A stretch of DNA of 61,619 nt, counting the filler. It is 15 parts of 15 records of this genome, joined end to end, with 100 filler letters (N's around TTAATTAATTAA, not from the genome) between each part and the next. Parts side by side here need not be neighbours in the genome. Positions count along the whole stretch, not along the records: positions 12,723 to 17,632 come from SRR15195285_9554; 14 more parts are not named here. One strand, written 5' to 3'. Every line of letters begins with the position of its first letter. Position 1 is the first letter of the stretch. Shown here piece by piece: positions 4,259-51,733 of this stretch. The notes under the pieces are model-generated. The model saw only the letters and a list, made by a program, of their open reading frames with translations. It was not told where the DNA came from and did not search any database. A program made the translations under genes and the position numbers.

Positions 4259-5567
4259 GGCTGCGGGCGGGCTGCCGGCGCGCTCGCTCGATCGCGCGAG
4301 TCGGGCTCCTCGTGGCGCGCCAGTAGTGCGGCGACTACATGTATACCATCGATCGCCGGCCACCATGCACTCGCGCGCGCGCGGGCCGCGGCCGCGCGCG
4401 CGCGTCGGCGCACGCCACGAAGTGCCCAGGTATGCTGAGCACAATCTGCTGATTTTTGGCCAACTGAGACCGGGGGAGTTCAAAGGCGGTTACGCAACCA
4501 CGTACTGTGGCTGTTTGGCGGCCCCAATAGGCGTGCTATGCCTTGTCATGTACAGGGTGGATCTCCTTCGAAGGTCTGTGTGGTCAGCTAGTGTAGCCGG
4601 CGCCGTAGAGTGTTGGTTTAGCAGCCGTTTTGGTGAGGCTCGTATAGGGTGACCACGCCTCGAGATTTGAATTTTTACACGTCTCATGCGCAACGGATAG
4701 CACCAACACCACTCGCGCCCACACCCTGGCAGCATAAGAGGCCGCTCTAGCTGTATGCCGAGAGTGCCGATCGAGCTCAGCTACGTCATCTAAGCATAAC
4801 TGACACCCGAGATATAACTTGCCCCTTGCATGCATGGATGGGTGGGCTTTGCATCGGTGGGTGGGCTTTGAATAGACACGTTGGGGGCGCAACGGTAACT
4901 CTGCCAGTACCCATCCTCTCGGCGACTAAGCACGGCAGTTGTGATTGGGGGGCTGCGCACCCTGGCGTGTACAAGGGTTGCTGGGCTGACAGAGTGGGGC
5001 ATGAACCGGTCAATGGACGTCCAGACCACGGACGCGACATGGATGATGATCGACGGTTGGGACCCACGATTCCCTTTCATTCGCCGCAACAATTTGCGGT
5101 CGACTGTGCGTCACGTTAGGTACGCGGACTGCGTACCTCGACTACGCAAAAAGCACCGTCCGGCGCGCGCTCGGGCGCGCGCGCTGGACAAGGACTAGCT
5201 AAACCGCTTGCGGGAGCGGCCAGCTAGGGGGCCTGGGCTGGTCTCGGGACCAGCCTGGCTTCCTTAACTGCCGCGGACGAACCGCGCAAAGAAACGGCTG
5301 CGTGCTGGGTGAGGCCAAGCAACAGCCGCAACTTTGTCAGTCTTAGCACTTGCAAGTTCGTGTCAGGAACTGAGCATTCCCTTCCTCTCTTCGCCTGCCT
5401 TCCGCAAGTGGCGATGGGGCAATATCCGACCGCCGTGGGGTCCGGACACGCCGCGTGCAAGTCAACCGCGCGTGCTGCAACACGCCGGTGCGCGTCACCG
5501 CGTACCGCGCTAGCATAGGCTTCCCGTCACCGTATCGCGCCACCCTACCGCCCCACGACCGCCAAGC

Positions 5568-7797
5568 ATGGCATCATCCGAGACCGCCAACCCACTGGCC
5601 CTGCAGGACGATACCGACGATGACGCCCATGCCGCCCGCGCCGCCGACGAGGACGAAGAGGGCGCCGCAGCCCTCGTAGCGCACGCCGCCACGGCCGCCG
5701 AGGAGGCCATCGCGCGGACCGCCGGCAGTGCCGAGGTCGCCGCCGCGGGCGGGCTGGCCGAGATGGACGACGCGGCTCACGCCAGCAACATCCGGCAGGC
5801 CTTCGCCAAGCTCCACCTGAACGGCGTCGGCGGCATCGTCGCGCAGGGCTACGTCATCGTCGGCTACTTCTCCAACTTCGCGCTGCTGACGATGGTCGAG
5901 ATCGAGTGGCCCAGCGGCTGGCTGGCCAGGTTCGCGTGGCTCAAGGCGCTCGCGTTCCCGTTCAAGGTACTGCTGCCGGTCGATCTGCTGGTGGAGGACG
6001 TGGCGGTCGGCGAGACGCTGGCGCTCGTGCTGACGCTGTGCACCCACCCGGCGATCTTTGCGTACATGGTTTACCGCGTGTCCTTCTTCAAGGATTCCCA
6101 ACCTTGGGAATCCTCGAAGAAGGACAAGTGGGCGGCCGCCGCGGAGCAGGGCGGCTGGCCTGTGCGCGCGGCCGCATGGCTGGCGCTGTGGCTCGCGCCG
6201 GCCACGCTCTTTGAGGCCGGCCGCAGCGCCCTCGGCTTTGGCAATTCAGCCAGCGCAGATGGAGCGGCCCTCACTGAGAGCGGTGGGAGCGGTGGGAGCG
6301 GGAGCTATCTGCCCGGTGGAGCAAAGGGGGCTGCAGAAGCCGGGCACGTACTCAGCAGCTTCACTGTCGCGTGGCTCCTCTGCGTCGGCGCAGTGATCGT
6401 GCCGTGCGTGCTGCACCGCTTCGCGCTGCGCTCAGCCTACGAGACTTCTCGCAAGCGGAACGAGCCCAAGGAGACATTCTTTGGCACCTGGGCCTACGCC
6501 GAGGGCAGCGTGCTGCTCTTCGCATACATCGCGCTGCACCTGAGCGTGGTGGTGGCGTGCGTGAGGCAGATCGCGCGCTTCTTCGATGAGGCGGACGGTG
6601 TGGACGCGGCTCTGGGGGCAGGTGGCACGCTGGTCATCTGGCTCGTGCCTGTGGCTGGATTCTTCCTTGGCAACAAGATTGACAGCGAGGAAATGAGGGT
6701 GGTGGCATTTCTATCTGCAGGCTGCCTCGTAGTCGGTGTGCTTGTTACCGGCGTGATTTACCTGCCCTCTGGTTTCGCCAGCATGGTCTTCGGCCCCGCC
6801 TACGCCCTCTTGCTGCCGGCGTTCCTGTTGCTCATCCTCATCCTCGACAACTGGAGAGAGGATCCCGACAGAAACCCAGAAGAAAAGATCGCCAAATGGA
6901 TCGAGGAAAAGGAAAAGGACCCACTGAACGACCGCGCAGAGGCCATCGAGGCGCTCGTTGCTGAGGAAGTGGCGAAGGGAGACGAGAACAGCCTGGTTGC
7001 ACCATGGAGGTACTCGCTGGTGGCGCCGTTCGAGCGGCAGTTCTGGTTCATGAAGATCGCAATGATGCTGGAGAAAGTTGCGCTCGGCGCGTTCGTTGTG
7101 GGCACGCGAGGGGCAGTGCAGCTGTGGGGATCGGTCGGCATCTCCACGCTGGGCACGGCCTTTTACGTGTGGAAGAAGCCGATGTTGGACGACGGAGAGG
7201 ACTTTTCGGAGTGTTTCGCACGAGGCAGCAACACCGCGATCGTCATCACCGGCGCGCTAGTGCACTACAGCAACATTGAAAAGAAAACTGGAGAGGGGAT
7301 CCTGACGGTCACTTCAGTCGTGACCATGGGTGTGTTTGTGTTGACGATCGGCCCACGCCGCGTGGTTAGCACTCTGACCGCATTCTTCCTCAAGCGAGCT
7401 GCGCTACAGAAGGCGGCCAAGATGGACGAGGCTTACATCAAGGGCACGATGGTGGTGGAGCAAGTGCACGCTGTGGATGACCGACTGTTCGCAAACATGT
7501 CCCCTGATCAGCAAGGCTGGCTGGCGCAACACAAGGGATCTGCTCTGCGTGGCTCCAGGCTGACGGTGATCAGGGTCGGCGCTTTGTCACTGCCGATGAA
7601 GCAGCCGTACACGAGCTCCACGCTAGATGCAACAGGACAGATCGATAGCGTGGGACGAGCGCGTGTAACCGCGTGGTGGCTCGCTACGGACGCTGCGGCC
7701 GCCGTTGCGGATCTGAATATTTCCGAGGCAGTCATCGGCGGTGCAGGACCTACGTTGGTCGAAGCGGTTTCTGCCTCATCCTCTCTGGAGTTCATCA
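5568..7797 (+). CDS. Multi-pass membrane protein with the start of a C-terminal leucine-rich repeat (3' truncated)
   Basis: Open frame of >740 codons with many hydrophobic segments. PFERQFWFMK...LEK resembles GPCR-like/TRP-C type proteins, and it ends in LRR-like LNISEAVIGGAG...SSSLEFI. Confidence 0.65.
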
Positions 7798-8069
7798 NNN
7801 NNNNNNNNNNNNNNNNNNNNNNNNNNNNNNNNNNNNNNNNNTTAATTAATTAANNNNNNNNNNNNNNNNNNNNNNNNNNNNNNNNNNNNNNNNNNNNTGG
7901 ATAACTCCGCCGCTTTTCCCGGCTGCATGCACCCCACCGTGCACGCGCGCGGGTCCTCGCGCTCGCTCGGGTCCTGACGCTGGCTGCTGGGTCGCGCGCT
8001 GCGTCGCGATTGCCGCGGCGATCGATACTGGTACGTACAGGGAGCTTACGCTCGCGTCGTGCCGTCGAC

Positions 8070-9467
8070 ATGGCCCCGCCACTGATGCTCACGGCAGCGC
8101 TACACGTATTGGAAGCTGCTGCTGCACCTGCGGCCCCCCCCTCATCATTATGCTACAATTCCTCCGCACTCCACACCCAAATGAATCTCGATGCGCCCGG
8201 GCACCCGACAACCGGCAGCACGCTCGACGCCTGCGGCGCTGCCTGCTGTGGCGATCCTGAGTGCGCCGGGTTTACCTTCACTTTGCGGCAGCCCACTGGC
8301 AACGAGGCCTGCGAGACCTCCACACCGTGCTGCTGGATAAAGACTGGTCACGGCGAACTCGCCACTAGAAAGTGCGGTGTGGAGAACGGCAACTGCACAT
8401 CCGCGGTCGTGCGTGACCCAGCCCCAGCAAAGCCTTCGCGTTTCTGGACGCCGACGCTCAACTACGTCAAGACGATCGCACTAGATACCACTGGCAACCT
8501 CCGCGATCCGTCTTCTGTAGTGCAGGATCCGCAGACCAAGCGTTTTCATTTCTGGGTTGACTATATGCCTGGCGCCACTCAGCCTGGCTGGCACGCCTAT
8601 CTGCACCACTACAGCGCCTCGGAGATCACTGGCCCGTGGACAAACCACGGCCTTGCGCTCAATCACTCTTCTGACCCACGCGCCTGGGACTACAGTGGCC
8701 AGTTCTCTTCGTCGGTGATCTATTCGGCGGAGGAGCAGCTGTGGTACCTGTTTTACTCTGCGTCGGGCGCGAATCAATCGAGCCTGCTCACGTGTGCGCA
8801 GCTTGCAGCCAGCTCACGCAGTCCGGACGGCCCGTGGATCGTGCTTGGTGCAGTTGCTACGCCCACTGGAGTCCCAAGCAACAATTGGACGGGAGGCTGG
8901 AACACTCGGCGATTGGACTCTGGCCGGGCTCTGATCATTGGTGGACAAAAGGGGTACTGGACCAAAGGGGTACAGGGCAAAAATGTCGCGAGCGAGGGCC
9001 TCTATCTTCCACACTCGCCACATTCTTTCGCGCCACCGTATGCCGAGGCTCCAGGCAACCCGAGATTCAAACCGCCAGCATCAGACTCCGCCGGATACGA
9101 GAACTGTGAGTTCTTTAAAGGTGGTTACCCTGCGCCGTCAAGCCAGCTGCATATCTGGTGCAGTTGGCACAGCGGATCCGGCATCCCAGGTCTCCCACGA
9201 GGGCAGTCACCACATTTCGTTGTCGATCTTACAACCGATCCGCTGGGTGAGCACTGGGTTTACGCGGGCTCACTCAACTGGCAAAATAAGTCAGACACTG
9301 GCCCGGCTCCCGGCGAGCCGACGCCTGTGTACGAGAATGGCGCGCCAGGAGACGCCTCCTCGGTCCAGTATTTCATCGCGCGGCAACATACTGGGCACAA
9401 AGGGGCCGGGGCTCTCGCCATAGGGCTGTACTCGCTAAGCTGGGCCGCTCCCAGTGTCGAGCAGTAA
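8070..9467 (+). CDS. Secreted five-bladed beta-propeller glycoside hydrolase (GH117/GH43-like) with an N-terminal PAN/apple-like Cys domain
   Basis: Signal-like N-terminus. CGAACCGDPECAGFTF...CWIK (PAN-like), then LRDPSSVV, GPWTNHG, AWDYSGQFSS, WYLFYS, SPDGPW and GYENCEFF. Confidence 0.7.
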   Translation: MAPPLMLTAALHVLEAAAAPAAPPSSLCYNSSALHTQMNLDAPGHPTTGSTLDACGAACCGDPECAGFTFTLRQPTGNEACETSTPCCWIKTGHGELATRKCGVENGNCTSAVVRDPAPAKPSRFWTPTLNYVKTIALDTTGNLRDPSSVVQDPQTKRFHFWVDYMPGATQPGWHAYLHHYSASEITGPWTNHGLALNHSSDPRAWDYSGQFSSSVIYSAEEQLWYLFYSASGANQSSLLTCAQLAASSRSPDGPWIVLGAVATPTGVPSNNWTGGWNTRRLDSGRALIIGGQKGYWTKGVQGKNVASEGLYLPHSPHSFAPPYAEAPGNPRFKPPASDSAGYENCEFFKGGYPAPSSQLHIWCSWHSGSGIPGLPRGQSPHFVVDLTTDPLGEHWVYAGSLNWQNKSDTGPAPGEPTPVYENGAPGDASSVQYFIARQHTGHKGAGALAIGLYSLSWAAPSVEQ

Positions 9468-9623: not shown

Positions 9624-12256
9624 TCATGTCTTCATCACCTGCACACGAGCCTGCACCGCCATGCTGTATGAGAAGGAACTCTCCGCATCCACACCGCCAC
9701 CGCTGCCCGGCTGCCCCCCACGTGCTTGCGCAGATCCCCTGCCTCCTCCGCCGCCACGCCCACGGCGTCCCATCTCAAGCTCGCTGAATTCCGTCGCCGA
9801 AATCCCCGCACCCAGTCCACCACCACCCGCTCCCTTGCCACCAGCGGCGTTGCCCGTTGTGAGCAAGAGCTGCTTCTGCTTAAGTCGGCGATCCTCTGCC
9901 TTGTTCAGATGCTTGGTCATCTGCACGCGGTGTCGATCAAACTCTGCTCGCGCCACTTCATGTGCTGCCATCGCCGCTAGCCTTCGACGAGCTTCAGTGC
10001 ACATATCCACTCTGTAGCCTCGATTCGTCAGAGCCGTGTGCTCAGACCGATCACCGCCGGCCGCGACTGTTTCTACTACTGCCGCACCCCCAAGTCCTGC
10101 CTGCAGCTGTTCGTCTAGCCGTGCGGCGACACTGAGGTTCTTTTTGCCGCCGGGACCACTAGACCCCTTCCGACTTGACAGCTTTCGCTCGTACTCAGCC
10201 CTTCTGGCAGCCATCTGCTGCTCTGGAGTCAGTTGGTCCACCTTTGTGTTTAGTAAGGCAACGTCCTCAGCACCGCTCTGTTTTTTGTCTTTCGGCCGCT
10301 TGATTTGTGATTGCGGGATCACGGCGTCGACGTTCGGATGGCAATCTACCACCGCCTGCGCAAGGCGTTCCAGTCGCCAGTACAGCTGATCTCGCTGCAG
10401 CTCCGCCATCCGTCGCAGATTGCGCGCTGACTGTCGAAGGCGTGGATGTGGCAGATCGCCGGCATCATGAAATCGTAGGAACTCTGACTTTGAAATCATG
10501 TAAAGGCTCACTGGCGTCGTGGCAACCACCGACGTCACCCATTTCACAGGTAGCGGCGCCCCCCATGGAGTTGCAAGTAGTGAGAGTTCCCCGAATACCT
10601 GAGTTCAGTGCACAGGTAAATCAGATGCAGTCGCAATGCAACAGTCATCTATCGACAGCCAGTATAGCCCACAATAGCGACAGTCTATCATTGAAGGCAC
10701 CCCTCTGAGCGACCGGCCGTGTGTGACAAAGACCGGCAAATATTCACGTACGTTTCCAGGGCTGACCTTCGTGAGACCAATCGACTGCGACTCATACTCA
10801 ATAACAGCCTTGTCGGACTTCGCCTGAGAGAAGTCTCGCCCGCCCCCACCCTCTAGCTTGCCCATCTGAAACTTGCGCACCACCCGAACATCCTGCACCA
10901 TTGACATCGCAGCAACGTCAGCACAAACGGACGGAAACACATGCATATCGTTCTGCACAGTGGTCGCACCTGCCGTAGCTCCACCTCGCCGCTATCCATC
11001 AGGTATATATTCTGGCAGTCATCTCCTTCCTTGGCGATAATTTGCCCCTTCTCATACTTTCGAAGGAACATGAACATCGCCGTATTGTGCAGCTGCTCAT
11101 CTGAGCACTGCTCAAAAAGAGGCATCGACTGCAGCAGCGCCATCTTTGCCTGCGTCTCTTCATGCTTCCTCCCCTGCATTACACCTAAGAAGTCTACGGT
11201 GTTAAGGAAAACGAATGTCGACTCGCCTTCTGCCATGATCCCAAGGCTGCGTGGCTTGTTTGAGAACAGCGCCACCTCGCCAAAAGAATCCGTCGAGTTC
11301 TTCAAGACTTTGAATGGCTTGAAATCCTTATGGTTTGGGTCCTGTGGACCGTTCGGATCCAGAAGCCGCGCGGCCCCTTTGAACAGGATGTAAAACCCGT
11401 CACCTGGGTCACCCTTTCTGAATACAAACTCGTTCGATTTGAGCGTAATCAGCGCGCAGCATACCGAGAGCTCGGTGCGCATGTCAGTGTTGAGGTTGTG
11501 CAGGAACGCCACTGATTGCAGCCAGTCGACGATGTACTTAGTTTCGCGTGCGTTGCGCTCAGAGGCTTTCTTTTTGATGGCCGAGAGCACGGAAGCCTGC
11601 AGAATGTTCTGTGCGACTTTACTGCCCTCTTCTAGAATGGCCTCGTCCTCGTCAAATTCTCCCGGCTTCTTAGTCGAGGCCAGGACTATCGGCTCGTGAA
11701 GCTGTACTCCGCCTGTCTCGTTTGAGCGCTCGCGCGACTTCTCGTAGAAGAGGTCTTTGTACTTGCGAAAGCGCTGCCCGTGGATGCTGGTGTCGCGCGC
11801 AAGCGGCTGTAGATCCTCCTCCGTGCGCTGGGTGAATGGGTCCCATGTGTGCTGCAGCGCTGGAACTCGTCCGCTGGCGTCGAACGGGCGTTCACCGGGC
11901 AGCTCGTGGGATGTCGAGAACGGGTTGAGCTTCTCCACAAGGTAGTCGTCCAGCGGATCTGTAAATCTATTATTCGCCGCACCCTCGTCGCCGTCCGCGC
12001 CCTCTAGCTGGCTCTCGTCCCAGCTCGCCCCAGGAGGGGCGCGGTGCTCGCGCCGGTCTTCGCGCGACCAGCCAAACCCACCCAGTGCGTAGCGGTTGCC
12101 TTTGAACTCTTCCTCCTCACGCGCCGCCTGCTCCATGAATGCCTCCATCGCCTCGTCCTCCTCCGGCGCGTCGCGCGGCGTCGCTGCTAGATCCGTGTCC
12201 AGCAGTGCGTTCATGATCTCGGTCGTGTCGTGCTCGTACATGGTAGAGATCTCCAT
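9624..12256 (-). CDS. Protein with two cyclic-nucleotide-binding domains; introns 10893..10969 and 10599..10751; 5' end uncertain
   Basis: CNBD1: VFRKGDPGDGFYILFKG...SFGEVALFSNKPR. CNBD2: IAKEGDDCQNIYLMDSGEV, with splicing restoring VSPGN-VFGELSLL. Confidence 0.8.
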
Positions 12257-12723
12257 CCCGCCGCCGCCCAGTTGAACGCACTATTTGACACCACCACAAC
12301 TCACACGCTCATGCACTCACACACATGCGCTCCCACGCACTCACACCCCCACCCACCCCCACACAGATACCCCCACACAGACCCTCGTGTACTCAGGTGT
12401 GCCCGCCACGGGCTCAGCCGCCAGCCCAGCCGATGACGGGGCCGCTGCTGTCCGGCTATGGGCTCCGCCGTTGCCCGCTCCGGATCAGTGTTCACTGACC
12501 GTTTGTTGGATCTGGAGGAGCCGGATCACAGGTTCCACCGGCGCCTGAGATGTTCGTGAGATCCAATCAATACACGACACTAATTTCCGTGGCAATAAAC
12601 TAAAGATAAAAAGAACAAATCTNNNNNNNNNNNNNNNNNNNNNNNNNNNNNNNNNNNNNNNNNNNNTTAATTAATTAANNNNNNNNNNNNNNNNNNNNNN
12701 NNNNNNNNNNNNNNNNNNNNNNG

Positions 12724-15700
12724 GAGGAGGAGGAGGAGGAGGAGGAGGCGGCTTTACCGCTCGGTGAATACTGGGATCCTGAACTGTGGCTGGAAAATCT
12801 GTTCATCAAAACCAGCACATTTTTCGGCGGGCCTGCGTATCTTAGATCAATACTTGGCACAAAAAAGGCAGCTCGTGGAAACGTTGACACATACAAGGTC
12901 GCACAGATGTTGCTTCACTTTGGGTACGTGGAGCGTGGTACCCACAGAGACCATGTGCTGTCTTCAGGTGATAGCTCCTTGCTAGACGATGGCTTCGGTG
13001 CAAGTCTCAACCTTGCATTGATGGACCAACTCAAACTCTTCTTGAGCCACACCCGGGACGAGGAGTGGATGTGGGACCGCATTAAGTCGCGCGAGGTTCA
13101 ACAGACAACTGTCTCAGCAATCATCAATCGGAAACAATTGTTTCCAAGCAGGCTTGAAGGAGCACCCATCGAAACACAACATTTCATCTACGCGAATTTT
13201 AGCATACTTGAAGGAATGTCCACATTCTGGGCTCATGCAGCCGAATGTGTCAAAAAAGCAGAGCATGACCACAGCACACGGTTCAATCTACTAAATCGGA
13301 TCGATGTAAATCAATTTCAACTGCGCTCCGTGGGACTGAAATGCCGCAAATGCAAGTGGCAAGGCAAGCGTCCATTACCCAACTGTGAGGCACAGCTCAG
13401 CAAGCGAAAAGCCTGCGACGCTTGCCGACCGAAACGTGATATGCTAGATGAATACTTGCGCTTTGTGATGGCTGTTAAAGAGTTTCTGAACATGACCCAC
13501 GTTGTTCGAAAATTCTTGCAAAACTGTCCCGACGACTGTCGTGACCCGTGGTCTGTGCCACCAGACATGGAGACATGGGGTGGTACAAAGGATGATAACA
13601 CAGTTGTACGAGAGTTCATGAGCATTGTACGCAAACACTGCCAGGAACGCTGTGCTCCCCTTTGGCGTGACTGGATACGTAGAAGACCAATTCAGTGGGA
13701 CTTGGACGCCAAGAATGATGAGGCTCTGGATGAGCTGACTGAGTGCTTGCAGGGGATCGGTTACACTGGAACAAAATCAGCACTGCAACCGTTGTTCAAA
13801 GCAATTCGTCGCCACGCTCGCAACTTTGCTTCATTTTCACATGTTGCACGTAGGAGCAGCTCAGCCGAGCAGCTCGCCCGATCGGTTTCTACTGAAGCAC
13901 AAGCACACAGACTGCTGTCAGCTGTATCAGGACTTGACTGCGTGCCTGAGGAGGCCCTTTTGAAGCTATCAAGGCACTTTAAACGAAAGACAATTGATCT
14001 GAAGGCAACGGTCATCGTAAAGGATGATTCGTCGACTGAGATGTACATAATTGAGACAGGTAAAGCGTTGGCAGGTCCTGAAGAGGGCAACGAAGCGAAT
14101 GTTTTTGCTGAGCTCACTACTGGTGACATCTTTGGGGAGGGTGGTGCTATTGATGGCAGCCCACGCAATTGTTTTGTGTGGAACGCGAGCACGACAGAAA
14201 AACTAGAGCTTCTGGCGATCGGAACAGACGCATTGAAGGATGTGATTAAACAATACCCCTCACTTCGTAAGAGCATCCTTGCAATGGGCATCCAAAGGAG
14301 AAAAGCAACTGGAGATATGCACACAGACTTTCGTGACTGGAACCGCTGTATTAAGTTTCTCAGCAGTGGAAACTACACATTCTGTACGATCCACGATCTC
14401 TGTCGCTGGGAGCTGCAAGACCAACGCCATCGATCAAGTAACATTGATCCGTATCGGATTAGCCGGTTTAAGGGTTCTGCCAACTATTCTCGTTTCAATT
14501 ACGTTGTCAGTGTTCTTCATATGGCTTTGACGCTTGTGGAGGCACCTTCAGGTGACACGCCGCTTACATTAACCGACACCGAGCGTCTCCAGGCTCATAA
14601 GACATTCTGTATTCTCCTTGGTGGGTGCATAATTGCCACATACTGGGTCGATATAGCGCTTTCCTGCGCCATTCACGGCGGAGTGAAACGCTACGAACGC
14701 CCACCAGCGACGCAGCCATCTCTCCCTGCGGAGATACCGCAGCTCACCCTGTTCCAGAAAACCGCACGGCTAAGCAAAGGTAGAGAATCTGAAGTTCCTC
14801 AGCTTACCCTCATTGCGTTGATTGTCGTCATCGGCCTACTCACGGTGGATTGGGGTCTACAGCTGCTTTTTGACTACAGCACAGAGCCGACACCTCGTGA
14901 CAGTCTGGAACAAGATTTAGTGCTTCTCATTCCCTACTCTGCTATCTTGCGCCCAGTTGTACTCGTGCTACGCTCAAAGCCTCTGCGCCATGGCGCGTCT
15001 AGTTTCGTTCGCACATTGGTCCATTCGGGAACAATCTTTCTGCTATTTCTGATCATTTTGGCAGCGTCTGGTGTTACGGGCATGATCCTTTTTGCAAATG
15101 AGCGCAGCAAAATGTACGGCGACGTGTTCCTTACCATGTCTTACATGTTCACCTACGTGAGTTTCCCTGTCACCCGTCCAAGTGCTTTCAACTTCCACTG
15201 CCACAAGCATCAGGAGTGTGCAGCAGCGCGCGTACTCTCTTGCGCTTACCCTGGGTGCTGGTATACGATGCAGATGACGACTGCAGAGAACTGGCCAGAC
15301 GCGGTGTGGGGTGCGACGGAATGTGATAGTTCTGGCAAATACGTGCACGGCAATTGTGCCAAATACTTTTTTCACCTGTACTTCTGGACTGCCTCGTTTG
15401 TCGGCACCATCATTATGGTTTCTTTGATGATTGCCACATTTGAGTCTAAGTACACAGAGCAGCATAGAGCGGAGGCGGAACAAAGACGCGCACGCCGTCT
15501 GGAAAGCATCGTAGCTGCGTACCTCGTCCTTGACCGAGCCGGACACAATCATCTGACTGTCAAAGAGATCGGAGAGTTCCTGGCAGCTTGCGGGCTTAAC
15601 CACGTGAAGCTAGGCAGGCGTGGGCAGAGGATTTTGTTGAAACTGAACGTTTCAGAATTTGCACCGGTGTTGGAACAACTGGAGCACGAGGTTGAGGGCT

Positions 15701-16935
15701 GCAAAGCTACCAGCATGCTTACAGAGGAACTTGTTGAAATAGAAACAAAAAAGATTCAAAGGCGGTCTGAGGAGAACTTGCAGGGAGATGCTGAAGAAGA
15801 CAGCGAGACGTCACCTCACCAGCCAAGATTTGTGAATTCGAATTTGCACGAGTTCTTGATGTCTGTCGTGTCGTTGGTCCACTTGGGCGGGACGGCATGT
15901 ATGAACACCGGTCTCCTTTTCTTCGGCATAGACGTTGACATAATCTCGTCCATCTGTGTCTGCATGTTCCATGCAGACTGTGTCGCAAGGGTCAGGGCCG
16001 CTGGAAGCTACTCGGACTTTTGGAATGTCCCTTCCAGCGTCTTTGATCAGTCAAAGAATCGTTACGATGCCTGGATATCTGCTCTGTCTGTGGCATTCCT
16101 CGGCTTAGCCGCTGCACAGCTCATCTTTGAAGTGCCACAATCCGAATTTGCTGCTTCCACATCAGCTTTTCTTGGGCTCGATCCTTGGAATCGAATTGCG
16201 CTAGCGTTGCCAGTGTTGAGACTCTTCTCTGGCCCTAAGTCGATAAGGATAATCTGGTTCTGTTTGTCTTCGATCCTTCCACAATACAGCCACGTGGTGG
16301 CGCTGGGCGCCATCGGGCTGTACTGTTTTGGCTGTGTCGGATGTTGGTTGCTCGCGTTTCGGTTCCATTATCTTGGGCCGGATGTCTACGAAATCCCCCA
16401 AGCAAACTTCAATGGCATGCTCGATTCCATCACTACCTTGTTCCAACTCTTTATTGGGGAGGCGTGGGACAGTGTGAAGCAGGCGGCGGTTGACAGCAAC
16501 GGTGGATTCGTTTCCGAGCTTTTTTTCTTGGTCTACGTTCTTACCATGACAGTGCTCTTCGTCAACCTGCTGTCAGGAGTCATCCTATCTTCGTGGGAGG
16601 TTGTGGCTACAGTCATAGAGACAGAGCGACGGCAGTCGACCGTTAGTGTGCGGCAGTTTCAGCTGCTGGCTGCTCACCAGGACATCTCAACACAATTTGA
16701 GATCCAGTTCGAGGGCGCACGTGACATACGAGTTGTACCGAGCATCAGCTATTTATTTGGAAGTGCTGACACTGACGGATCGGGTACGATCACCCGCCAG
16801 GAGCTTGCGCGACAAATTGGGGAAAAGGCGGCGGCAGATGTGTGGGGCAAGGTCCAACAGCTTGTGGACGTGGAAGAAGACGGTGAAGTGACCCTCGAAG
16901 ACTTGAAGCCGAGGACCCTCGAGGAGTTGATGTGA
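12724..16935 (+). CDS. Two-repeat (TPC-like) cation channel with a CNBD and EF-hand(s); in-frame intron 15157..15273; 5' truncated
   Basis: The frame is open from the contig edge. CNBD MYIIETG...GDIFGEGG...PR. Two 6TM-like repeats with S4-like ILRPVVLVLR and LPVLRLF. Pores TTAENWPD and FIGEAWDS, S6 LFVNLLSGVI, EF-hand DTDGSGTITRQE. Confidence 0.8.
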   Translation, partial: EEEEEEEEAALPLGEYWDPELWLENLFIKTSTFFGGPAYLRSILGTKKAARGNVDTYKVAQMLLHFGYVERGTHRDHVLSSGDSSLLDDGFGASLNLALMDQLKLFLSHTRDEEWMWDRIKSREVQQTTVSAIINRKQLFPSRLEGAPIETQHFIYANFSILEGMSTFWAHAAECVKKAEHDHSTRFNLLNRIDVNQFQLRSVGLKCRKCKWQGKRPLPNCEAQLSKRKACDACRPKRDMLDEYLRFVMAVKEFLNMTHVVRKFLQNCPDDCRDPWSVPPDMETWGGTKDDNTVVREFMSIVRKHCQERCAPLWRDWIRRRPIQWDLDAKNDEALDELTECLQGIGYTGTKSALQPLFKAIRRHARNFASFSHVARRSSSAEQLARSVSTEAQAHRLLSAVSGLDCVPEEALLKLSRHFKRKTIDLKATVIVKDDSSTEMYIIETGKALAGPEEGNEANVFAELTTGDIFGEGGAIDGSPRNCFVWNASTTEKLELLAIGTDALKDVIKQYPSLRKSILAMGIQRRKATGDMHTDFRDWNRCIKFLSSGNYTFCTIHDLCRWELQDQRHRSSNIDPYRISRFKGSANYSRFNYVVSVLHMALTLVEAPSGDTPLTLTDTERLQAHKTFCILLGGCIIATYWVDIALSCAIHGGVKRYERPPATQPSLPAEIPQLTLFQKTARLSKGRESEVPQLTLIALIVVIGLLTVDWGLQLLFDYSTEPTPRDSLEQDLVLLIPYSAILRPVVLVLRSKPLRHGASSFVRTLVHSGTIFLLFLIILAASGVTGMILFANERSKMYGDVFLTMSYMFTYVSFPVTRPSAFNFHCHKHQECAAARVLSCAYPGCWYTMQMTTAENWPDAVWGATECDSSGKYVHGNCAKYFFHLYFWTASFVGTIIMVSLMIATFESKYTEQHRAEAEQRRARRLESIVAAYLVLDRAGHNHLTVKEIGEFLAACGLNHVKLGRRGQRILLKLNVSEFAPVLEQLEHEVEGCKATSMLTEELVEIETKKIQRRSEENLQGDAEEDSETSPHQPRFVNSNLHEFLMSVVSLVHLGGTACMNTGLLFFGIDVDIISSICVCMFHADCVARVRAAGSYSDFWNVPSSVFDQSKNRYDAWISALSVAFLGLAAAQLIFEVPQSEFAASTSAFLGLDPWNRIALALPVLRLFSGPKSIRIIWFCLSSILPQYSHVVALGAIGLYCFGCVGCWLLAFRFHYLGPDVYEIPQANFNGMLDSITTLFQLFIGEAWDSVKQAAVDSNGGFVSELFFLVYVLTMTVLFVNLLSGVILSSWEVVATVIETERRQSTVSVRQFQLLAAHQDISTQFEIQFEGARDIRVVPSISYLFGSADTDGSGTITRQELARQIGEKAAADVWGKVQQLVDVEEDGEVTLEDLKPRTLEELM

Positions 16936-17026
16936 GACACGATACCAATGCAATTCAGAAGTTATGGTGGCGTAGAGCATAACTATCAGTGCTCGATTGC
17001 GCGCAACACAACTTCACAAGTGCTTG

Positions 17027-17425
17027 TCATGCGCGCGTCTCGCCCGCATCGCCCAACGAGGGCCGCCGGCAGTTGCGACCTGAGGGCGTAACCAGCGCTG
17101 ACCTCTCTTGCCACACACGTTGATTCGAAAACTTGACACTTTGTTTTTCGGCACATGGACGCACTTGACACCTGGAGTGCCAGTGGCAGCCGCTAGAGCA
17201 GCGGAATGTGTAATACTTTAGAACTTGATCGAGTGAAACACGGGCAAGACACACAAGCCGAGAAGGGTGTCGGCGGAATACAAAGCCATGCGAAAGGAAT
17301 CCATGCAAAAGGCTCCGCCCAGCCGGCGCCAGGCACTCTTTGAGAGTGCCTGGCGTCTTAGTGTCCTCAGCTATGCGCCGTGGTGTCCTCAAGACCTTCT
17401 CGTCTTTGTCTTTCCGTTTGCCCAT
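17027..17425 (-). CDS. Hypothetical small basic protein (exon structure unresolved)
   Basis: ATG at 17425 begins MGKRKDKDEKVLRTPRR. The downstream sequence looks intronic and no family was recognised. Confidence 0.3.
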   Translation of the reverse strand: MGKRKDKDEKVLRTPRRIAEDTKTPGTLKECLAPAGRSLLHGFLSHGFVFRRHPSRLVCLARVSLDQVLKYYTFRCSSGCHWHSRCQVRPCAEKQSVKFSNQRVWQERSALVTPSGRNCRRPSLGDAGETRA

Positions 17426-17553
17426 CGTGTCGTGCTGTGTGCTGTATGTACACGCCAAGGCCTGCCTGCGCAGACCGTCTCGTGAGTTTGCGGTAGCGAC
17501 GGCCTTGTTCTGCCGAATTTTAGTCTACAGGTACTAGTACATGTAGACTCCGT

Positions 17554-17605
17554 GCGGGAGTCCTCATCAGTCGAATCAGCGCGGGAGTCCTCATCAGTCG
17601 AATCA
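17554..17605. repeat. 27-bp-period tandem duplication next to a 28-bp palindrome
   Basis: GCGGGAGTCCTCATCAGTCGAATCA at 17554 and 17581. Palindrome AGTCTACA-G-GTACTAGTAC-A-TGTAGACT at 17522-17549. Confidence 0.9.
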
Positions 17606-17816
17606 CGGGGAGACTCAGATGGGTTGGTCACTNNNNNNNNNNNNNNNNNNNNNNNNNNNNNNNNNNNNNNNNNNNNTTAATTAATTAANNNNNNNNNNNN
17701 NNNNNNNNNNNNNNNNNNNNNNNNNNNNNNNNCAACCACTTCTTTCGAACATCACTTTGACCACCCGGTGCGGCCGTGGTCCGGGTACGCGATGGTATGG
17801 ACGGGTGAGGCGAGCA

Positions 17817-20785
17817 TGGCACAGGGCAACTGCCGGCAGGAGGCTAGCTCAAGGCGGCTCTGCTGTGCGCTGCTCGTGATAGCAAGTGCTAGATATGGTA
17901 CCGAACGTGTGGCGGCTGCAGCGGAGCTTGTTCATGGCGCCAACCCCAGCTCCAGTGAGCAGCACACGCTACTAGTTGAAACCACCGCTGGGCTCAGCAT
18001 CGCGTTCTCTCCGTCGGCAGTTCCGCTGTCTATCAAGAACGCCGAGGGCCACGAGCTGCTGGGCGTGGGGTCGCCTGGGTTCACGCTCTACTGCTCTGCT
18101 TTCACCGCTGAACAGCACCAGTCCTGCAACCAGAGCGAAGGCGTTGCTTTTGACACGTGTGTCGCCAACGGATCTGACCCGAACGAATTGACGTTCACCT
18201 TTGGCATCTCAGCGTCGGACGAAGAGCTCGACGTGACTTTCAGCGGAGCGCACCACTATCTAACCGCCAACATCACATCTACCCGGGGTTTTGAGTGGGG
18301 CGATGGCAAAAGTGTTCGGTTTGCCCTGGTTGGTAAGGCACCCGACGCCCTCCGTGGAATGGGTCTGAACTTTATGATCGATGACGCCAGTGGCGAAGGC
18401 CACAACAACAAACCGCACCCAATCTTGAACTACGAGGCGCCCTGGGTCAATTCGACCTGGAATCCACACGCTCGCTTCGCCGTTTACGAGCGCGTTGATG
18501 ATGCCACGGAGGACGAGACGCTGTTCGACTTATGGGTAGACGAGGGCTTGGCCCATCCACGCGTGAACGGCAGCTGGGATCGTCCCACTGCCAAGGCGTG
18601 GGTCGAGACCTGGACCAAGGCAACCTACGATATCAGCCACCTGGCTATGGTGCCACGCAACCTCAGCGAGTGGCGGGACTTCTTCCCGTACGGCAAGCTT
18701 ATGGATGCGAAGTCGCTGTGGTTCAATTTCCGAGTATGGGCGGGGAGCGAAATCGACAACGTTAGTCCAAAGATGTTTCCGAGCGGCGTCCCGGGCTTCA
18801 AAAGCTTTAGCGACGATGCAGCCAAACATGGCTTTCGTATAACGACGCATCGGATGAGCGGTGGTCTCATGCCGGACGACCCCGACTACTGCGTGAAGCC
18901 GGATCCAGGTCTACTGGGCTGGGGCAACATGCATCTGATGTCTAATGGCGCCGCTGGTGTCGACAGAGTCGCGGTCAAGCCGCAGCCAGGTATCAAGATC
19001 CCCGTTCCGAGCAACAAGTGGAAATCAAACATGTCCACGCAAGTATACCAGGAAGTAAAGGCCGATCTCGGCGCGTGCAGCATCGGCGACGAGATGCTGT
19101 TCTATCAAAATATCGCACCACTTCCTGACGGTAACTGGGAAATCGTTCTCAGGACCAAAACGAAACAGGCACATCCTTCTGGATCGTTAGTGAGAGGCTA
19201 TATCAAGGGAAACGAGTACTTCATACCAGACCTGTTCTCACCGCTGTACGAAGAGATTGCGGTGCGCTACGCAGACTTCAGTAATCTGGTCGGCTTTGAC
19301 GACGGCAGTTTCGACGGCGCGGCCTGGTTTGGCTGGTACGGGCGATGGGCCTTCTTCAAATTTGCGACGTTGGTGTACGAGAATCTAGACCACCCAACAG
19401 TGGTTCACACTAGCGGTTTGGTTGTTTCCTCCGCTTGGCCAGAGTACAGATTCAATTCTGTGAAAGCTGCGTTTGGCGGCAGCTTCACGACGCAGCCAGG
19501 AGGCATTTCGCTAGAACCTGGCTACGTCGGCCTCGACACGTCCTCGTTAGACCGCGCCGCGTTGGAGTTGACTTCGGCTTTGTGCGACAACACTCGGCAG
19601 TTTTCCGTAGGGCACGATTTACGGTCGACCCTCGATGTCTACAACGACGCCAGTGGTCATGGCGTCGGTAATGTAGAGCAAGTGCTGACCTTGGTGAACG
19701 AGTACAAGCGTGGCAGCCTCGCCATGGGGCCAGAGCAGCGGCAGTGCATGAGGGAGACTGTCATGACAAAACAAAAACACCCCCGCATTTCCAACGTCCT
19801 CAATGCATCATGGATGGTCGAGGGCGCAGTCTTTAGGAAATGGGTCAGCACCGGCACGGAGGTGTACGATTACAAGGCCTACTCAATGTCTAGTTTCATC
19901 CCACCACGCTTCTACGCGCAGAGTGAGAGTCGGGTGGCTCTCGTCCCACCCACTGAGTTACAAGCAGGTTTCGAGAAGGCCCAAGTGATCGGGAGGGTGC
20001 TGCCTCGATTTGACGCTCTGTCGCCAATGAACATCGACTTATTTGAGAAGATGAAGGTTGCGGGGGCGACTCTGCAGCTCAGCGCTCACAATCCCAGCCC
20101 CATGGAGAGCTGGGATGAAGGTCGGCTGAAGGAGTACCGTGTGCTCCCTGCCCTTAACCTCACGCAGCACCAGGGAATTGGCATGTTTGTCGATGGCGAC
20201 GGAAGCGGGGGCACACTAGTAGTCAGGGTTGTCTGTGGTACCACTGCCCGCGACTATGCCGCGCCGTTGACGTTCACCGGGAGGCAATGGGTAGAGATAC
20301 CATCACCCGAACAGGGGTTGCGGGTCAGCAACTGGGGCCCGATCGGCAAGGGCGCTGCTATCTGGGCGGGGATCAACTTTGCCGAAGCTGTTGGAATTTC
20401 TATCGGGATTGGCTACATGCCTCCATCGGCTACGACCAATGTGACCGTAAGTGGACTGCAGGCGTTATCCGAGATTCGTGAGCCACTAGTCGACCCTCAA
20501 ATTACTGTCGGCGACGAGACTGTACATGCTACTGGAACACTGCAGGCTTACGACCATTTCATCCTGGCCCCTGATGGAACTTTCACCATCTATGACCAGT
20601 CTTGGAAGATGCTGTGCAATAACACAGTCGGCACGTTCAAACCGACAAACCTATCGAGCTTCCAAATGAGCGTGGGCGCGCCCGGCAAGAAGCCTTTGTG
20701 GCTGGAGGTTGGCGTGGTGGGCGCCACGGAGACTGTCCCAAATCCTGGGTGGACACCGCGAGTGCGCGAGGGGCGTGACGCTTAG
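17817..20785 (+). CDS. Large secreted, intronless, glycoside-hydrolase-like protein of unassigned family
   Basis: About 990 codons with a hydrophobic signal segment. Possible TIM-barrel features (FPSGVPGFKSFSDDAAKHGFRITTH; GFDDGSFDGA) and a C-terminal beta-sandwich (GIGMFVDGDGSG...TFTGRQWVEIP). The start could be 17791. Confidence 0.6.
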
Positions 20786-47424: not shown

Positions 47425-47674
47425 GCACGTGACATGTCCTTGGAGGGTGCAATAGACGTTTCGGGCGTGCGGGGGGGGGGGGGGGGGGGGGGGGNNNNNN
47501 NNNNNNNNNNNNNNNNNNNNNNNNNNNNNNNNNNNNNNTTAATTAATTAANNNNNNNNNNNNNNNNNNNNNNNNNNNNNNNNNNNNNNNNNNNNCCAATT
47601 TCGGCCCCATAGTGTTGAGTGGGGGCCAGCCACTACAGCCACTGCTGTGCAGGAAGCAGCGGGGGCTGGCTGGG

Positions 47675-50124
47675 ATGGAAAGGGCGGCGCCGCCAGTGGG
47701 TGGCGGCAGGCGGAGGGTGGCGCAGCGGCAGCGTCCAGATGCCGAGCCGCTGGATGCCGAGGAATGCGTGCCGTCGTGGTTGGTCTGCGAGGGCTCGGAG
47801 CCGGTGAATGGCGTGCGGGTTGCAATCTGGGAGTGGCAGGACGGGAAGTACTGGAGGGAGCTGCCCGACTCGCTGTGGCCGAAACTAGAGCTGGGTCGCC
47901 GCGCTGCTCGCTCCGGCGGCGGCGGCGGGCAGGTCGATATTGAGCTGCTTGACATCGATATGGGCGAGGCGGGCGGCGCGCTGCCGCCGGAGTGCCGGTG
48001 GGTCGTTGACACTGGAAAGCTTCACATGACCCACACGTTCACGGAATTGTCGCGGCAGGTGCGTCGCAACACGTGCTACCGTGCCGTGTGGGAGTGGAAT
48101 CGGTGCGACACTCCGGAGGAGGGACAGTGGGTGCCGTACGCTAAAGGGTTGCAGCGAGTACTGGAGGACGCGTACGAGACGGGTGAGATGTCGGTGCAGT
48201 TCTCGGTGCAACCCGCAAGCGGGTGGGTCTGCAAGCACACGGGCACACCTGCGCGGCTCGAATACACCGTGGAGTGGACGGAGACCGACGACGAAGGTAG
48301 ACGTGTGTATCGCCAGACGGACGACTCCAGACGAAAGCGGCCGGTACGGCGACGCGTTTGCTGCCCGATACCCATCTTCAATCTTGAAGACCTTGCGACG
48401 GTCACAAAAGACGGTGAGCGCAGCAAAACGCATCGCGACTTCTGCGACGCAATTCACCGACCAGGTTTCGCGGTCGTGAGGGTCGAGCCCGGGTCAATGC
48501 CTGCTCCGTCGCAAATATATGCTCTGTGGAAGCCGTTCTTTCACCACACTCCAAAGTCGGAGAAGGAAAAAATGGCAGTGCGAGGTTCAGGAGCAATGTC
48601 GTCCATCACGGGGTCAGGTTGGGTTGGGAACAAAGAGTCTGCGGAGCATTTTGAGATCGGGATCAAAGAGGAAGGCAAAAAGGAGGAAGTGCCGTGGCCA
48701 CAGACAAGGGGGCAGATTGAGCAGCTGCAGCGAGAGCTCCAGAATTGCTGCTCGACGGTGTGCCGTGTGGTGACCAAAACGCTGGAGCAAGGCGCTGAAG
48801 GCACCGCAGACATGTGGCCGCAACAGTGGGGCAATGATGTGCATTCCGACCGTTCGAAGTGGAACAGCTTTCGCGAGGTGGCATGGGACCAGTCGCTATG
48901 GCATAGTTTCGGTGGTACTGTGCGTTCCTGCCAACGCGTCAACTTCTTCCGCACGACTCCACCAGCAGCCGTGATGCTGCGTCCGACTTTTGGGACACAG
49001 TTGCATCAAGACCTTGGCCTAGTTACCGTGGTGGTTAAAGGTCTTGGTGGTGGGCTGGTGATGCATCCTCGTGGCACCGAGTTCCAGTATGACATTTCTG
49101 ATTGGACCTCTGCGGAGCGTGTGGTTGATGAGGACACTGATGTGATCGTCTTCGGCGGTATGCAGCTTGAAGCGGCCACACGTGAATACTATCATGCTGC
49201 TGTGCACGGTACAATGGCACCAGCTGCCAGCACAGACGACGAACAGAAATACGGGACTCAGCCCGCCGAAGGTACTTGTGCCCAAGCGGCGTGCATCTGC
49301 ACTCGCTCATTTGTAGCTCAACTTCTGATAGTTTGTCCTCGGTTTCTTGTCGGACAGACGGCGTGCGCATCTCGATGCCGCTGTTTATGCGCGTGCGTGG
49401 TGAAGGTGAGCCCGCCAAGCAAGAAGAAGAGTTCCGGCAGGATGTCGAGACCATTGTCAGGCGGCTATTGACCCAAGATACTATCAATAGCATGAGTCGC
49501 ACGAGGCTTACGGCGCTACTCGAGACGGAATGCACGCGAACTCTAAATCTGAACATGCGAGACGCGAAGAACCAAGATATCCTGTGCGCGCATTGCACAT
49601 GACACCGCACACCTATACCAGACGATTCGTCCGGTGCTCTAGTGTCTGTCATAGTCTCTCGCTGACCAGCGCCTGGCACTTGTGCGTGTAAGCGTAGGTT
49701 TTCGATCATTTGCACCATTCTCTCTGAGCACCGAGGTTCAACGCATCCTGATCAACCTGATCAACCTGATCTGCCAGCTGTGGCGCCCTCTCTACCTGTT
49801 CCTGCCTCCGTTCCGACACCATCTAGCGCGGGTGCTACTGCTGCGCGACAGTCGGAAGCACCCGCAGTGACAGTGGCAAGCTCCAGCGGCAGCAGCAGCG
49901 ATGGAAGCTGGGCCTGCGCAGCATGCACGTTAGTCAACGAAAAGAAAGAAGCTCATTGGTGTGAGGCCTGCGGCGCCCCACGCATAAACACACGGTGCGT
50001 GTCGATCCATGATGAATCGTTAGCTCTGATGTGCCTGTTGTCAGGGCGAGGCCGCAAGATCGTGCTCTTACTTGGCTGCTCGCTGTCATGCATTCGACTG
50101 GCAGGGGTGTCCTCCCGAAGGTAG
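47675..50124 (+). CDS. WWE-like x2 + 2OG-Fe(II) dioxygenase + RanBP2-type zinc finger protein; intron 49272..49357 and further introns; 3' structure approximate
   Basis: IWEWQDGKYWREL and VWEW...GQWVPY...LEDAYE...RPVRR; IPIFNL, GFAVV, HQDLGLVT, AAVHG, RISMPLF; WACAACTLVN...CEACGAPR. Confidence 0.7.
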
Positions 50125-51461: not shown

Positions 51462-51733
51462 NNNNNNNNNNNNNNNNNNNNNNNNNNNNNNNNNNNNNNN
51501 NNNNNTTAATTAATTAANNNNNNNNNNNNNNNNNNNNNNNNNNNNNNNNNNNNNNNNNNNNTGTGTGTGTGTGTGTGTGTGTGTGTGTTTTTGTCTGCCT
51601 GGCTGGCTGGCTGGCTGGCTGGCATGCAGCAAACGCAAGGTTGGGACTTCAGCTTTCCATCGTTGCGCGCTCCGCGTCTGTTGCCGCCGCTGAGCTCCTT
51701 GCTGTGGTGTCTGTGTGTAGTCGTCTCCGGCAG

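Follow-up and report, generated by a model that had tools for sequence, protein, structure and literature searches.

A predicted TPC-fold channel with Cav-like filter glutamates and an N-terminal cyclic nucleotide-binding domain from a marine protist

Introduction

Can one protein unite a cyclic nucleotide-binding domain (CNBD), a two-repeat channel with a Cav-like filter and an EF-hand, and what kind of channel would it form? This question is raised by an open reading frame (ORF) at positions 12724..16935 (+) of a window of 61,619 nucleotides, which is the whole stretch of DNA that was analysed. A sequence-only reading of this ORF had described two six-transmembrane (6TM) repeats, with a CNBD before the first and an EF-hand at the end, and had proposed a regulated Ca2+ channel of unfamiliar architecture. 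In this study, we compared the ORF with its relatives, with known channels and with structural models. We consider it reasonably likely, with the function inferred, that the ORF encodes a channel with a two-pore channel (TPC) fold that would dimerise to form a ring of four glutamates (EEEE), would be permeable to Ca2+ and would be modulated by cyclic nucleotides and Ca2+.

Results

The ORF encodes two channel repeats with a glutamate in each filter

The ORF (P0001) comprises 1403 codons followed by a TGA stop codon at 16933-16935, and its 5' end is open at the contig edge. Pfam recognised Ion_trans (PF00520) in two stretches (E 3.4e-25, 89 bits), a cNMP_binding domain before the first and an EF-hand at the C-terminus, and the arrangement that had been read from the sequence was thereby borne out within one ORF. 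Channel repeat I, with segments IS1 to IS6, lies at 14479..15498 (+). It covers residues ~586-925, including a putative intron, and was delimited by Ion_trans, the helices of an AlphaFold2 (AF2) model and colinear relatives. Repeat II, IIS1 to IIS6, lies at 15835..16638 (+) and covers residues ~1038-1305 (Ion_trans at 1071-1290, AF2 helices). Both of the pore loops named earlier, TAENW (residues 853-857) and IGEAW (1244-1248), were present in the sequence. Filter I is T853 A854 E855 N856 W857 at 15280..15294 (+), followed by P858 and D859, and filter II is I1244 G1245 E1246 A1247 W1248 at 16453..16467 (+), followed by D1249.

The register of the two glutamates was then compared with that of known channels. 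A phmmer search against PDB sequences aligned TLFQLFIGEAWDSV with TVFQILTGEDWNEV of Cav2.3 repeat II, in which the filter is TGEDW. The same residue, E1246, was aligned more weakly with the filter glutamates of Cav2.x repeats I, III and IV. Secondary BLAST segments between repeat I and repeat II placed E855 on E1246 and Trp on Trp. The pore aligned to Cav and bacterial Nav (BacNav) channels and not to K+ channels. In A1, an alignment of 15 sequences, E855 (=E305) and E1246 (=E696) were at least 90% conserved. N856 (=N306), G1245 (=G695), W1248 (=W698), R1166 (=R616) and R1175 (=R625) were invariant in the same alignment, and the two arginines belong to IIS4, which reads LR(1166)LFSGPK(1172)SIR(1175). 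In the AF2 core model, the short loop that connects pore helices P1 and P2 held both glutamates, each two residues ahead of the Trp that opens P2, and the filter II loop sat between model helices 682-693 and 698-709. These results indicate that both glutamates occupy the filter position, in agreement with the sequence-only reading.

The channel body has a TPC-like fold

The AF2 core model comprised 853 amino acids and was built from alignment A1 (pLDDT 65, pTM 0.64). Among the printed Foldseek matches, ranks 1-12 and 14 were TPC chains, including human TPC2 (E 2e-12), AtTPC1 and mouse TPC1. The best 17 entries in VIA-align were also TPCs (Z 20.8-23.4), and the next was Cav2.3 (Z 15.4). The A1 profile matched AtTPC1 in one colinear stretch (187-775 to 153-698, 162 bits), which covered both repeats and the linker. 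By summed score, Cav1-3 channels were at the top of the PDB matches of this profile (~300 bits), and for Cav1.3 every stretch in the printed part of the alignment matched repeat II of the profile only. Taken together, the TPC ranks in Foldseek and VIA-align and the Cav matches of repeat II point to a channel body of TPC type in which the filter and P-loop are of Cav type.

We compared these features with the known groups of channels. Like animal TPC1-3 and plant TPC1, which gave the best structural matches, the protein has two 6TM repeats in one chain. The pore loop of TPCs has a motif resembling '..TT(A/G)xN(W/Y)PDV', and repeat I follows this pattern. An EF-hand-like element directly after IS6 is shared with plant TPC1. 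The filters differ. According to the available text of one report, repeat II filters of TPCs are Asn-based, VNN in animals and diatoms and MGN in plants, and the filter of the diatom TPCL is VND (PMC11085791). Here they are Glu-based, AEN in repeat I and GEA in repeat II. The protein also differs from TPCs in its N-terminal CNBD, its C-terminal EF-hand and ~1300 upstream residues with four transmembrane (TM) segments and a Cache-like ectodomain.

The excerpts available on TPC-related (TPCR) channels of unicellular eukaryotes describe two-domain channels with a putative selectivity filter that is Cav-like (PMC4278181, PMC8490419, PMC12839299). By this description, the Cav-like filter residues in a two-domain channel make the present protein similar to TPCRs; the same excerpts mention neither a CNBD nor a Cache module. 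With Cav1-3 the protein shares a repeat II P-loop and filter that align residue for residue (FQLFIGEAWDSV and FQILTGEDWNEV) and a common T/G-x-E-x-W register. It differs from them in having two repeats instead of four and in its structural score, Z 15 for Cav against 23 for TPCs. Two-repeat tandem 6TM-CNBD channels have been described in protists; in the text available they have a K+/CNG-type pore and a separate C-linker and CNBD after each 6TM unit (PMC7576140). A CNBD and a 6TM channel in one chain are common to both. Unlike these tandem channels and the CNG, HCN and KCNH channels, the present protein has a single CNBD before IS1 and a Cav/TPC-like pore, and it lacks a CNBD joined to S6 by a C-linker.

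A CNBD precedes repeat I

The CNBD (PF00027, cNMP_binding) lies at 14005..14256 (+), residues 428-511, and scored 34.4 bits against a cut-off of 27.5. Alignments to PDB sequences spanned about residues 404-527. Its phmmer matches were protein kinase A (chain 5j3u, E 8.3e-6), CRP-family regulators and a cyclic nucleotide-gated channel (6wej, E 6.5e-4). The phosphate-binding cassette FGEGGAIDGSPRNC at 14131..14172 (+), residues 470-483, retained Gly-Glu and Arg481. Its FGE...PR aligned in register with GDAFGELALLYNAPRAA of 5j3u and with the cassette of CRP, and Arg481 was kept in all three rows of alignment A2 (P0001 and its relatives P0002 and P0006). With a score above the curated cut-off and an intact G-E...R cassette, the domain is assigned to the CNBDs and is predicted to bind a nucleotide. 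In 48 other relatives scanned with Pfam, cNMP_binding was found in none at the thresholds used, and the CNBD was observed only in a subclade of five rows in the family tree described below.

The CNBD ends ~75 residues upstream of IS1. A Cys/Asp motif lies between them at 14326..14412 (+), residues 535-563, in which D535, D538, R541, C542, C554, D558 and C560 were invariant in three sequences. In the cytosolic region before the CNBD there is a Cys-rich stretch (CxxC...CxxC) at 13369..13443 (+), residues 216-240; its Cys positions were conserved in P0002, which gave a weak C6_DPF match (E 0.08). Pfam gave no match in the N-terminal 400 residues of the ORF. The segment AQMLLHFGYVE was present at residues 60-70, and its suggested likeness to a DEP domain was not supported, since Pfam returned no DEP at E<=1 and the AF2 model of residues 1-560 (three sequences) was unusable at pLDDT 39.

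EF-hand elements follow both repeats

The C-terminal EF-hand pair region lies at 16750..16905 (+), residues 1343-1394, and was conserved in P0002 and P0005. The EF-hand_6 match at residues 1343-1362 was marginal at 25.9 bits against a cut-off of 25, and EF-hand_7 scored 18.6 bits, below its cut-off of 30. The first loop, DTDGSGTITRQE, is a canonical 12-residue loop with D1, D3, S5, G6, I8 and E12, and the second, DVEEDGEVTLED, is looser. A degenerate EF-hand-like loop, DRAGHNHLTVKE, was also found at 15532..15567 (+), residues 937-948 (D937-E948), directly after IS6 in the inter-repeat linker. It formed a helix-loop-helix in the AF2 model, and the profile match to AtTPC1 was colinear through the linker. 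Pfam called no EF-hand at residues 937-948 of P0001; the relatives P0004, P0019, P0020 and P0063 carry Pfam EF-hand pairs in the inter-repeat linker.

The CNBD and the channel belong to one gene

We asked whether the union of the CNBD and the channel could be an artefact, produced by a chimeric assembly or by an ORF finder without splicing that reads through two adjacent genes. The contig is short and cut at a repeat. The database proteins are named in the manner of an ORF-style caller ('plen_..._part_00'), both ends of P0006 are visibly truncated, probably at introns, and no single RNA contig spanned the whole ORF. These features would fit an artefact. The frame itself is open over 1403 codons, however, and over 2703 in the database protein P0003. 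P0002 (2406 aa) showed 57% identity over 97% of the query and was colinear, with the same order of parts. It belongs to a cluster of eight members from three sources, which includes proteins of 2434 and 2408 aa. The full-length homologue search covered a length band of 771-2456 aa, in which P0002 was the only match, and P0003 came from the search of representatives. A third lineage, P0006 (39% identity), starts within the final third of the CNBD and continues into the channel.

The junction was also covered by independent contigs. The DNA contig X1 (13582-15931) extended from the CNBD to pore I, and the RNA-library contig X13 (14113-14788) crossed the boundary between the CNBD and IS1. Nineteen of the 23 listed runs held the stretch or part of it, 12 held at least half of the sampled words, and five were RNA libraries. 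Given the open ORF, the order of parts in P0002, the link in P0006, the bridging contigs and the occurrence in 19 of the 23 runs, we rate an artefact as very improbable. These results indicate that the CNBD and the channel are not split into separate genes; such a split had been named in the sequence-only reading as fatal to its proposal.

The runs that held the sequence were mostly seawater or other marine metagenomes, with some metatranscriptomes, and the organism is therefore common in the environment. No match to part of the dinoflagellate spliced leader motif was found, and nothing in this search pointed to a dinoflagellate transcript. P0003 carries the source label EukProt 'Picozoa sp. 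COSAG02', and P0006, a fragment, clusters with proteins of 'Picozoa sp. COSAG04'. We conclude that the ORF corresponds to the C-terminal half of one genuine gene, which belongs to a small marine protist.

A putative intron lies beside filter I

A stretch of 117 nt at 15157..15273 (+) begins with GTGAGT, contains a pyrimidine tract and ends with CAG. It is in frame, has no stop and adds 39 codons between pore helix P1 (..MFTY) and MTTAENW. The 39-residue insert was missing at exactly the same point in P0002, P0004 and P0006, and P0005 and P0010 read FTF/FTY joined directly to M(A/T)TAENW. In the AF2 model the insert (model residues 263-302) had a pLDDT below 50. Contig X1, from a run labelled 'DNA?', includes the 117 nt, and the insert is thus genomic. 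Judging from these sequence features, 15157-15273 is a probable intron. The single joint seen, at 17136>17220, was in a DNA run and in the 3' flank (four runs, all contigs). The database proteins resemble ORF-style gene calls, which would explain both the insert in P0003 and the cut ends of P0006.

The full-length protein is predicted to carry upstream ectodomains

As found by tblastn, residues 1301-2703 of P0003 mapped to 12724-16932 with 99.93% identity, and residues 1-1300 had no coding match anywhere in the window. The ORF is therefore the last 1403 residues of a protein of ~2700 aa, cut at the contig edge. The break coincides with a GAG repeat encoding poly-Glu at 12724..12747 (+), and P0003 continues upstream with more Glu. 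The upstream part of P0003 contains four hydrophobic segments (~357-379, 715-735, 755-773 and 1199-1220), which enclose two large loops. In an hhalign comparison, ectodomain 2 matched the Cache regions seen in relatives (probability 97.6%, E 4e-12), and the match took in a YNPxxRxW(F/Y) motif. Ectodomain 1 found no support in the same comparison (probability 21%), and Pfam detected neither Cache nor VWA in P0003 and P0002 at E<=10.

The full protein would thus read, from the N-terminus, as a cytosolic segment, ectodomain 1 between two TM segments, a Cache-like ectodomain 2 between two further TM segments, and a cytosolic helical Cys-rich region. The CNBD, the two-repeat (2 x 6TM) channel of TPC fold and the C-terminal EF-hand pair would follow. 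At ~190-330, in its predicted N-terminus, P0003 also contains near-identical tandem copies of a ~45-residue unit (ARLPRAMEGTPARHD...). The ORF-style gene call may have taken in untranslated or repeat DNA here, which makes the true start codon uncertain.

The channel belongs to a large protist family

The channel part (residues 551-1403) was searched against 1.84 billion representatives. This gave 397 proteins at E<=0.001, 111 at <=1e-10 and 20 at <=1e-30, with P0003 at the top. In the 48 other relatives examined with Pfam (23 + 25), two Ion_trans stretches were found in 43, one in five and more than two in none. Each of the two repeats matched its own counterpart in the relatives. N-terminal to the channel, 16 of the 48 carry dCache_1 and/or MCP-like_PDC_1, nine of them above the curated cut-off, and VWA was found in three.

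Acidic filters were the norm in this family. Among 51 two-repeat members, filter I was acidic in 47 (37 E, 10 D) and filter II had E in 39, and both were E in 31; the usual motifs were T-G-E-N-Y and G-E-G/A-W. In this alignment P0002 represents the CNBD clade, and P0001, P0003, three four-repeat proteins and matches that lacked either pore were set aside. Labelled members come from Picozoa, Rhodelphis marinus, Paulinella micropora and Cafeteria roenbergensis, and family proteins are named 'hypothetical protein' or 'Ion transport domain-containing protein'. The best Protein Atlas score, 0.75, was to a 'hypothetical protein' cluster (Ion_trans in 90% and cNMP_binding in 20% of members) and was below the level of evidence. 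The architecture had been called unrecognised, which no longer holds for its core: the core belongs to this large protist two-repeat family, in which E/E is the commonest filter, and Cav-like filters of TPCRs are in print. The protein is not an orphan, then, and is placed in a subclade of five rows within a family of which many members have Cache or VWA N-termini. In the full-text literature, with most subscription journals outside its coverage, we found no description of a CNBD-fused or Cache-fused two-repeat channel, and none of a Cache/VWA-fused two-repeat channel family in the literature searched. The closest published systems were the TPCRs, the diatom TPCL and the tandem (6TM-CNBD)x2 channels.

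In a FastTree phylogeny of 54 rows (midpoint rooting, several long branches), P0001, P0002, P0004, P0006 and P0005 formed one clade with support 100, nested among Cache-bearing branches. This nesting bears on the proposal that the protein survives as an evolutionary intermediate between single-repeat channels and the four-repeat Cav/Nav channels. Repeat II is Cav-like in sequence, and a two-repeat protein with Cav-type filter residues is what such an intermediate could look like; the idea has already been put forward for TPCR channels in the text available to us (PMC4278181, PMC12839299). On the other hand, the CNBD clade is a five-row tip within a family of Cache- and VWA-bearing branches, its special features are therefore derived, and the overall fold is nearer to TPC than to Cav. 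We therefore regard this explanation as quite unlikely, and the earlier suggestion of an intermediate between 1- and 4-repeat channels was not upheld.

Five relatives (P0012, P0014, P0022, P0057 and P0098) carry an EF-hand pair just before IS1, where the CNBD stands in the present protein. The occurrence of an EF-hand pair at the same site suggests that this position is a swappable second-messenger module. Three of these, P0012, P0014 and P0057, also have a VWA domain far upstream. The Cache-bearing P0025 has an EsV-1-7 cysteine-rich motif (34.5 bits) between its ectodomain and channel.

Contig structure and other frames in the window

The window consists of 15 short contigs. The sequence TTAATTAATTAA flanked by N runs occurs 14 times (0 expected), and these linkers, at 14 sites (3298, 7842, 12667, 17677 ... 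58535), have stops in all frames. As the contigs are unlinked, adjacent ORFs are not genomic neighbours and synteny across the joints is meaningless. The contig that bears the channel ORF covers 12724-17632. An ORF listing gives 12679..16935 (+), and the genuine sequence begins at 12724, past the linker. The 3' flank extends over 16936..17632 (+) to the contig end, and its final ~150 nt are a high-copy repeat. At 17480-17632 a short direct repeat was seen, with GGGAGTCCTCATCAGTCGAATCA occurring twice, a summed depth of 484 in X1 against ~6 over the gene, and many loose ends. A dispersed repeat at which the assembly broke is the probable explanation.

Other frames were noted in the window. On the preceding contig, a frame of 475 codons at 10853-12280 (-) encodes another cNMP-binding protein from this assembly, separate from the channel; it gave a strong cNMP_binding match (71 bits) and ends in a second CNBD-like stretch. 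The frame at 51570-53024 (+) pairs a Cu/Zn superoxide dismutase (residues 52-189) with the start of the TM domain of a Na+/H+ exchanger (378-479) and runs off its contig. The pairing is odd and could reflect either a gene fusion or read-through of two genes. The frame at 34979-37039 (+) contains a pectate-lyase-like rhamnogalacturonase/epimerase domain (163 bits) and a short match to the N-terminal extension of a phage endosialidase. A frame of 1016 codons at 17735-20785 (+) had no Pfam family at E<=1e-5, and the frames at 5514-7841, 7905-9467, 40934-42601 and 47600-49471 were likewise without one.

Discussion

In this study, we found that a CNBD, two channel repeats with a filter glutamate in each and a C-terminal EF-hand pair occur in one gene. 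We propose the following mechanism. Two chains would dimerise as TPCs do, and E855 and E1246 would each stand twice around the axis to form the EEEE ring. D859 and D1249 would lie just outside this ring, and the pore would be permeable to Ca2+ and would probably prefer it. Repeat II, with two family-invariant S4 arginines (R1166 and R1175), may act as the voltage-sensing half. The binding of cAMP or cGMP to the CNBD may adjust channel opening via repeat I, and Ca2+ feedback may come from the C-terminal EF-hand. Small molecules from outside may in addition be sensed by the upstream Cache-like ectodomain. We infer dimerisation, selectivity, the binding of cyclic nucleotides and Ca2+, the coupling of the domains and the subcellular location from sequences and models. 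As far as the available text of one paper shows, domain II of TPCs is the voltage-gating half and domain I the lipid-gated half (PMC12839299). Since repeat I is under ligand or lipid control in animal TPCs, the CNBD stands ahead of it and sister groups carry EF-hand pairs at the same site, control by cyclic nucleotides would be exerted via repeat I.

Several points weigh against this proposal. The CNBD score is modest at 34 bits, and in P0002 it was 23.6 bits, below the cut-off. After the cassette arginine stands Asn/Cys, which is unusual, instead of Thr/Ser/Ala-Ala. We know of no coupling route by which a CNBD ahead of S1 would reach the gate. Both S4 segments are charge-poor. The channel model is of moderate confidence by its pLDDT and pTM values, and the Foldseek TM-scores of the TPC rows were low, at 0.31-0.38 by query length. 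The repeat II profile scored 105 bits against a single Cav1.3 repeat, which is better than TPC-type pores would suggest. If the 39 residues beside filter I were translated, pore loop I would be disrupted. The RNA-library contigs break off at 15118, start again at 15320 and showed neither a loose end nor a joint that would mark splicing. The Cache-likeness of the N-terminus comes from a profile comparison with relatives, with no direct Pfam match, and the region is outside the window. Bacterial Nav channels also have an EEEE ring, and the ring alone does not prove Ca2+ selectivity. Of the original claim of a Ca2+ channel built from an EEEE dimer, the part that stands is the placement of both glutamates in filter register; selectivity for Ca2+ does not follow from it.

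Part of this evidence would also fit an ordinary TPC-type organellar channel, non-selective or Na+-preferring, in which the CNBD is a degenerate module for structure or dimerisation and the glutamates do no more than increase cation conductance. TPCs have the closest fold, and the modest CNBD score, the charge-poor S4 segments and the EEEE rings of Na+-selective bacterial channels could all be read in this way. In the text available, tandem CNBD channels with decayed CNBDs are reported from dinoflagellates (PMC7576140). Yet the Gly-Glu and Arg of the cassette are kept at the correct spacing in P0001, and the same residues occur in P0002. Both repeats have the Cav-type T-x-E-x-W register with an acidic residue one or two places past the Trp, and the conservation of E855 and E1246 in A1 argues in the same direction. 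The four upstream TM segments and the large ectodomains suggest a surface sensor, although they do not prove it. On balance, we think an ordinary TPC-type channel rather unlikely, and we favour a Ca2+-permeable channel that is modulated by cyclic nucleotides and Ca2+.

A wider and more doubtful idea is that the protein and the Cache/VWA two-repeat family are ionotropic chemoreceptors, with an extracellular Cache-type ligand sensor placed in cis on a Cav-like EEEE Ca2+ pore of TPC fold and with intracellular cyclic nucleotides (in this protein) or Ca2+ (in sister groups) acting as a second gate on repeat I. The alpha2delta auxiliary subunit brings VWA and Cache ectodomains to Cav channels in trans. 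Its likeness to the present family is one of domain type: relatives carry dCache_1/PDC or VWA N-terminal to the pore repeats, whereas here the domains are fused in cis via extra TM segments, and in this protein there was support for a Cache-like segment and none for VWA. Cache in alpha2delta has been noted in the text available from one paper (PMC12303104). If the chemoreceptor idea is true, it would mean a new class of ligand-gated Ca2+ channel in protists and a cis-fused counterpart of the animal Cav/alpha2delta pairing.

Ideas on the origin of the four-domain Ca2+ and Na+ channels centre on two-repeat channels with a Cav-like filter, and no functional test of such a channel is described in the literature covered, parts of which were available as excerpts. 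This gene is a clean example, with Glu at both filter positions, the exact Cav register and a TPC fold, and it is a good candidate for heterologous expression and structural work. The apparently swappable module before IS1, a CNBD here and an EF-hand pair in sister proteins, offers a testable model for ligand control of repeat I. The gene also brings to light a large protist family in which channels are fused to Cache or VWA ectodomains, and this family is itself worth study.

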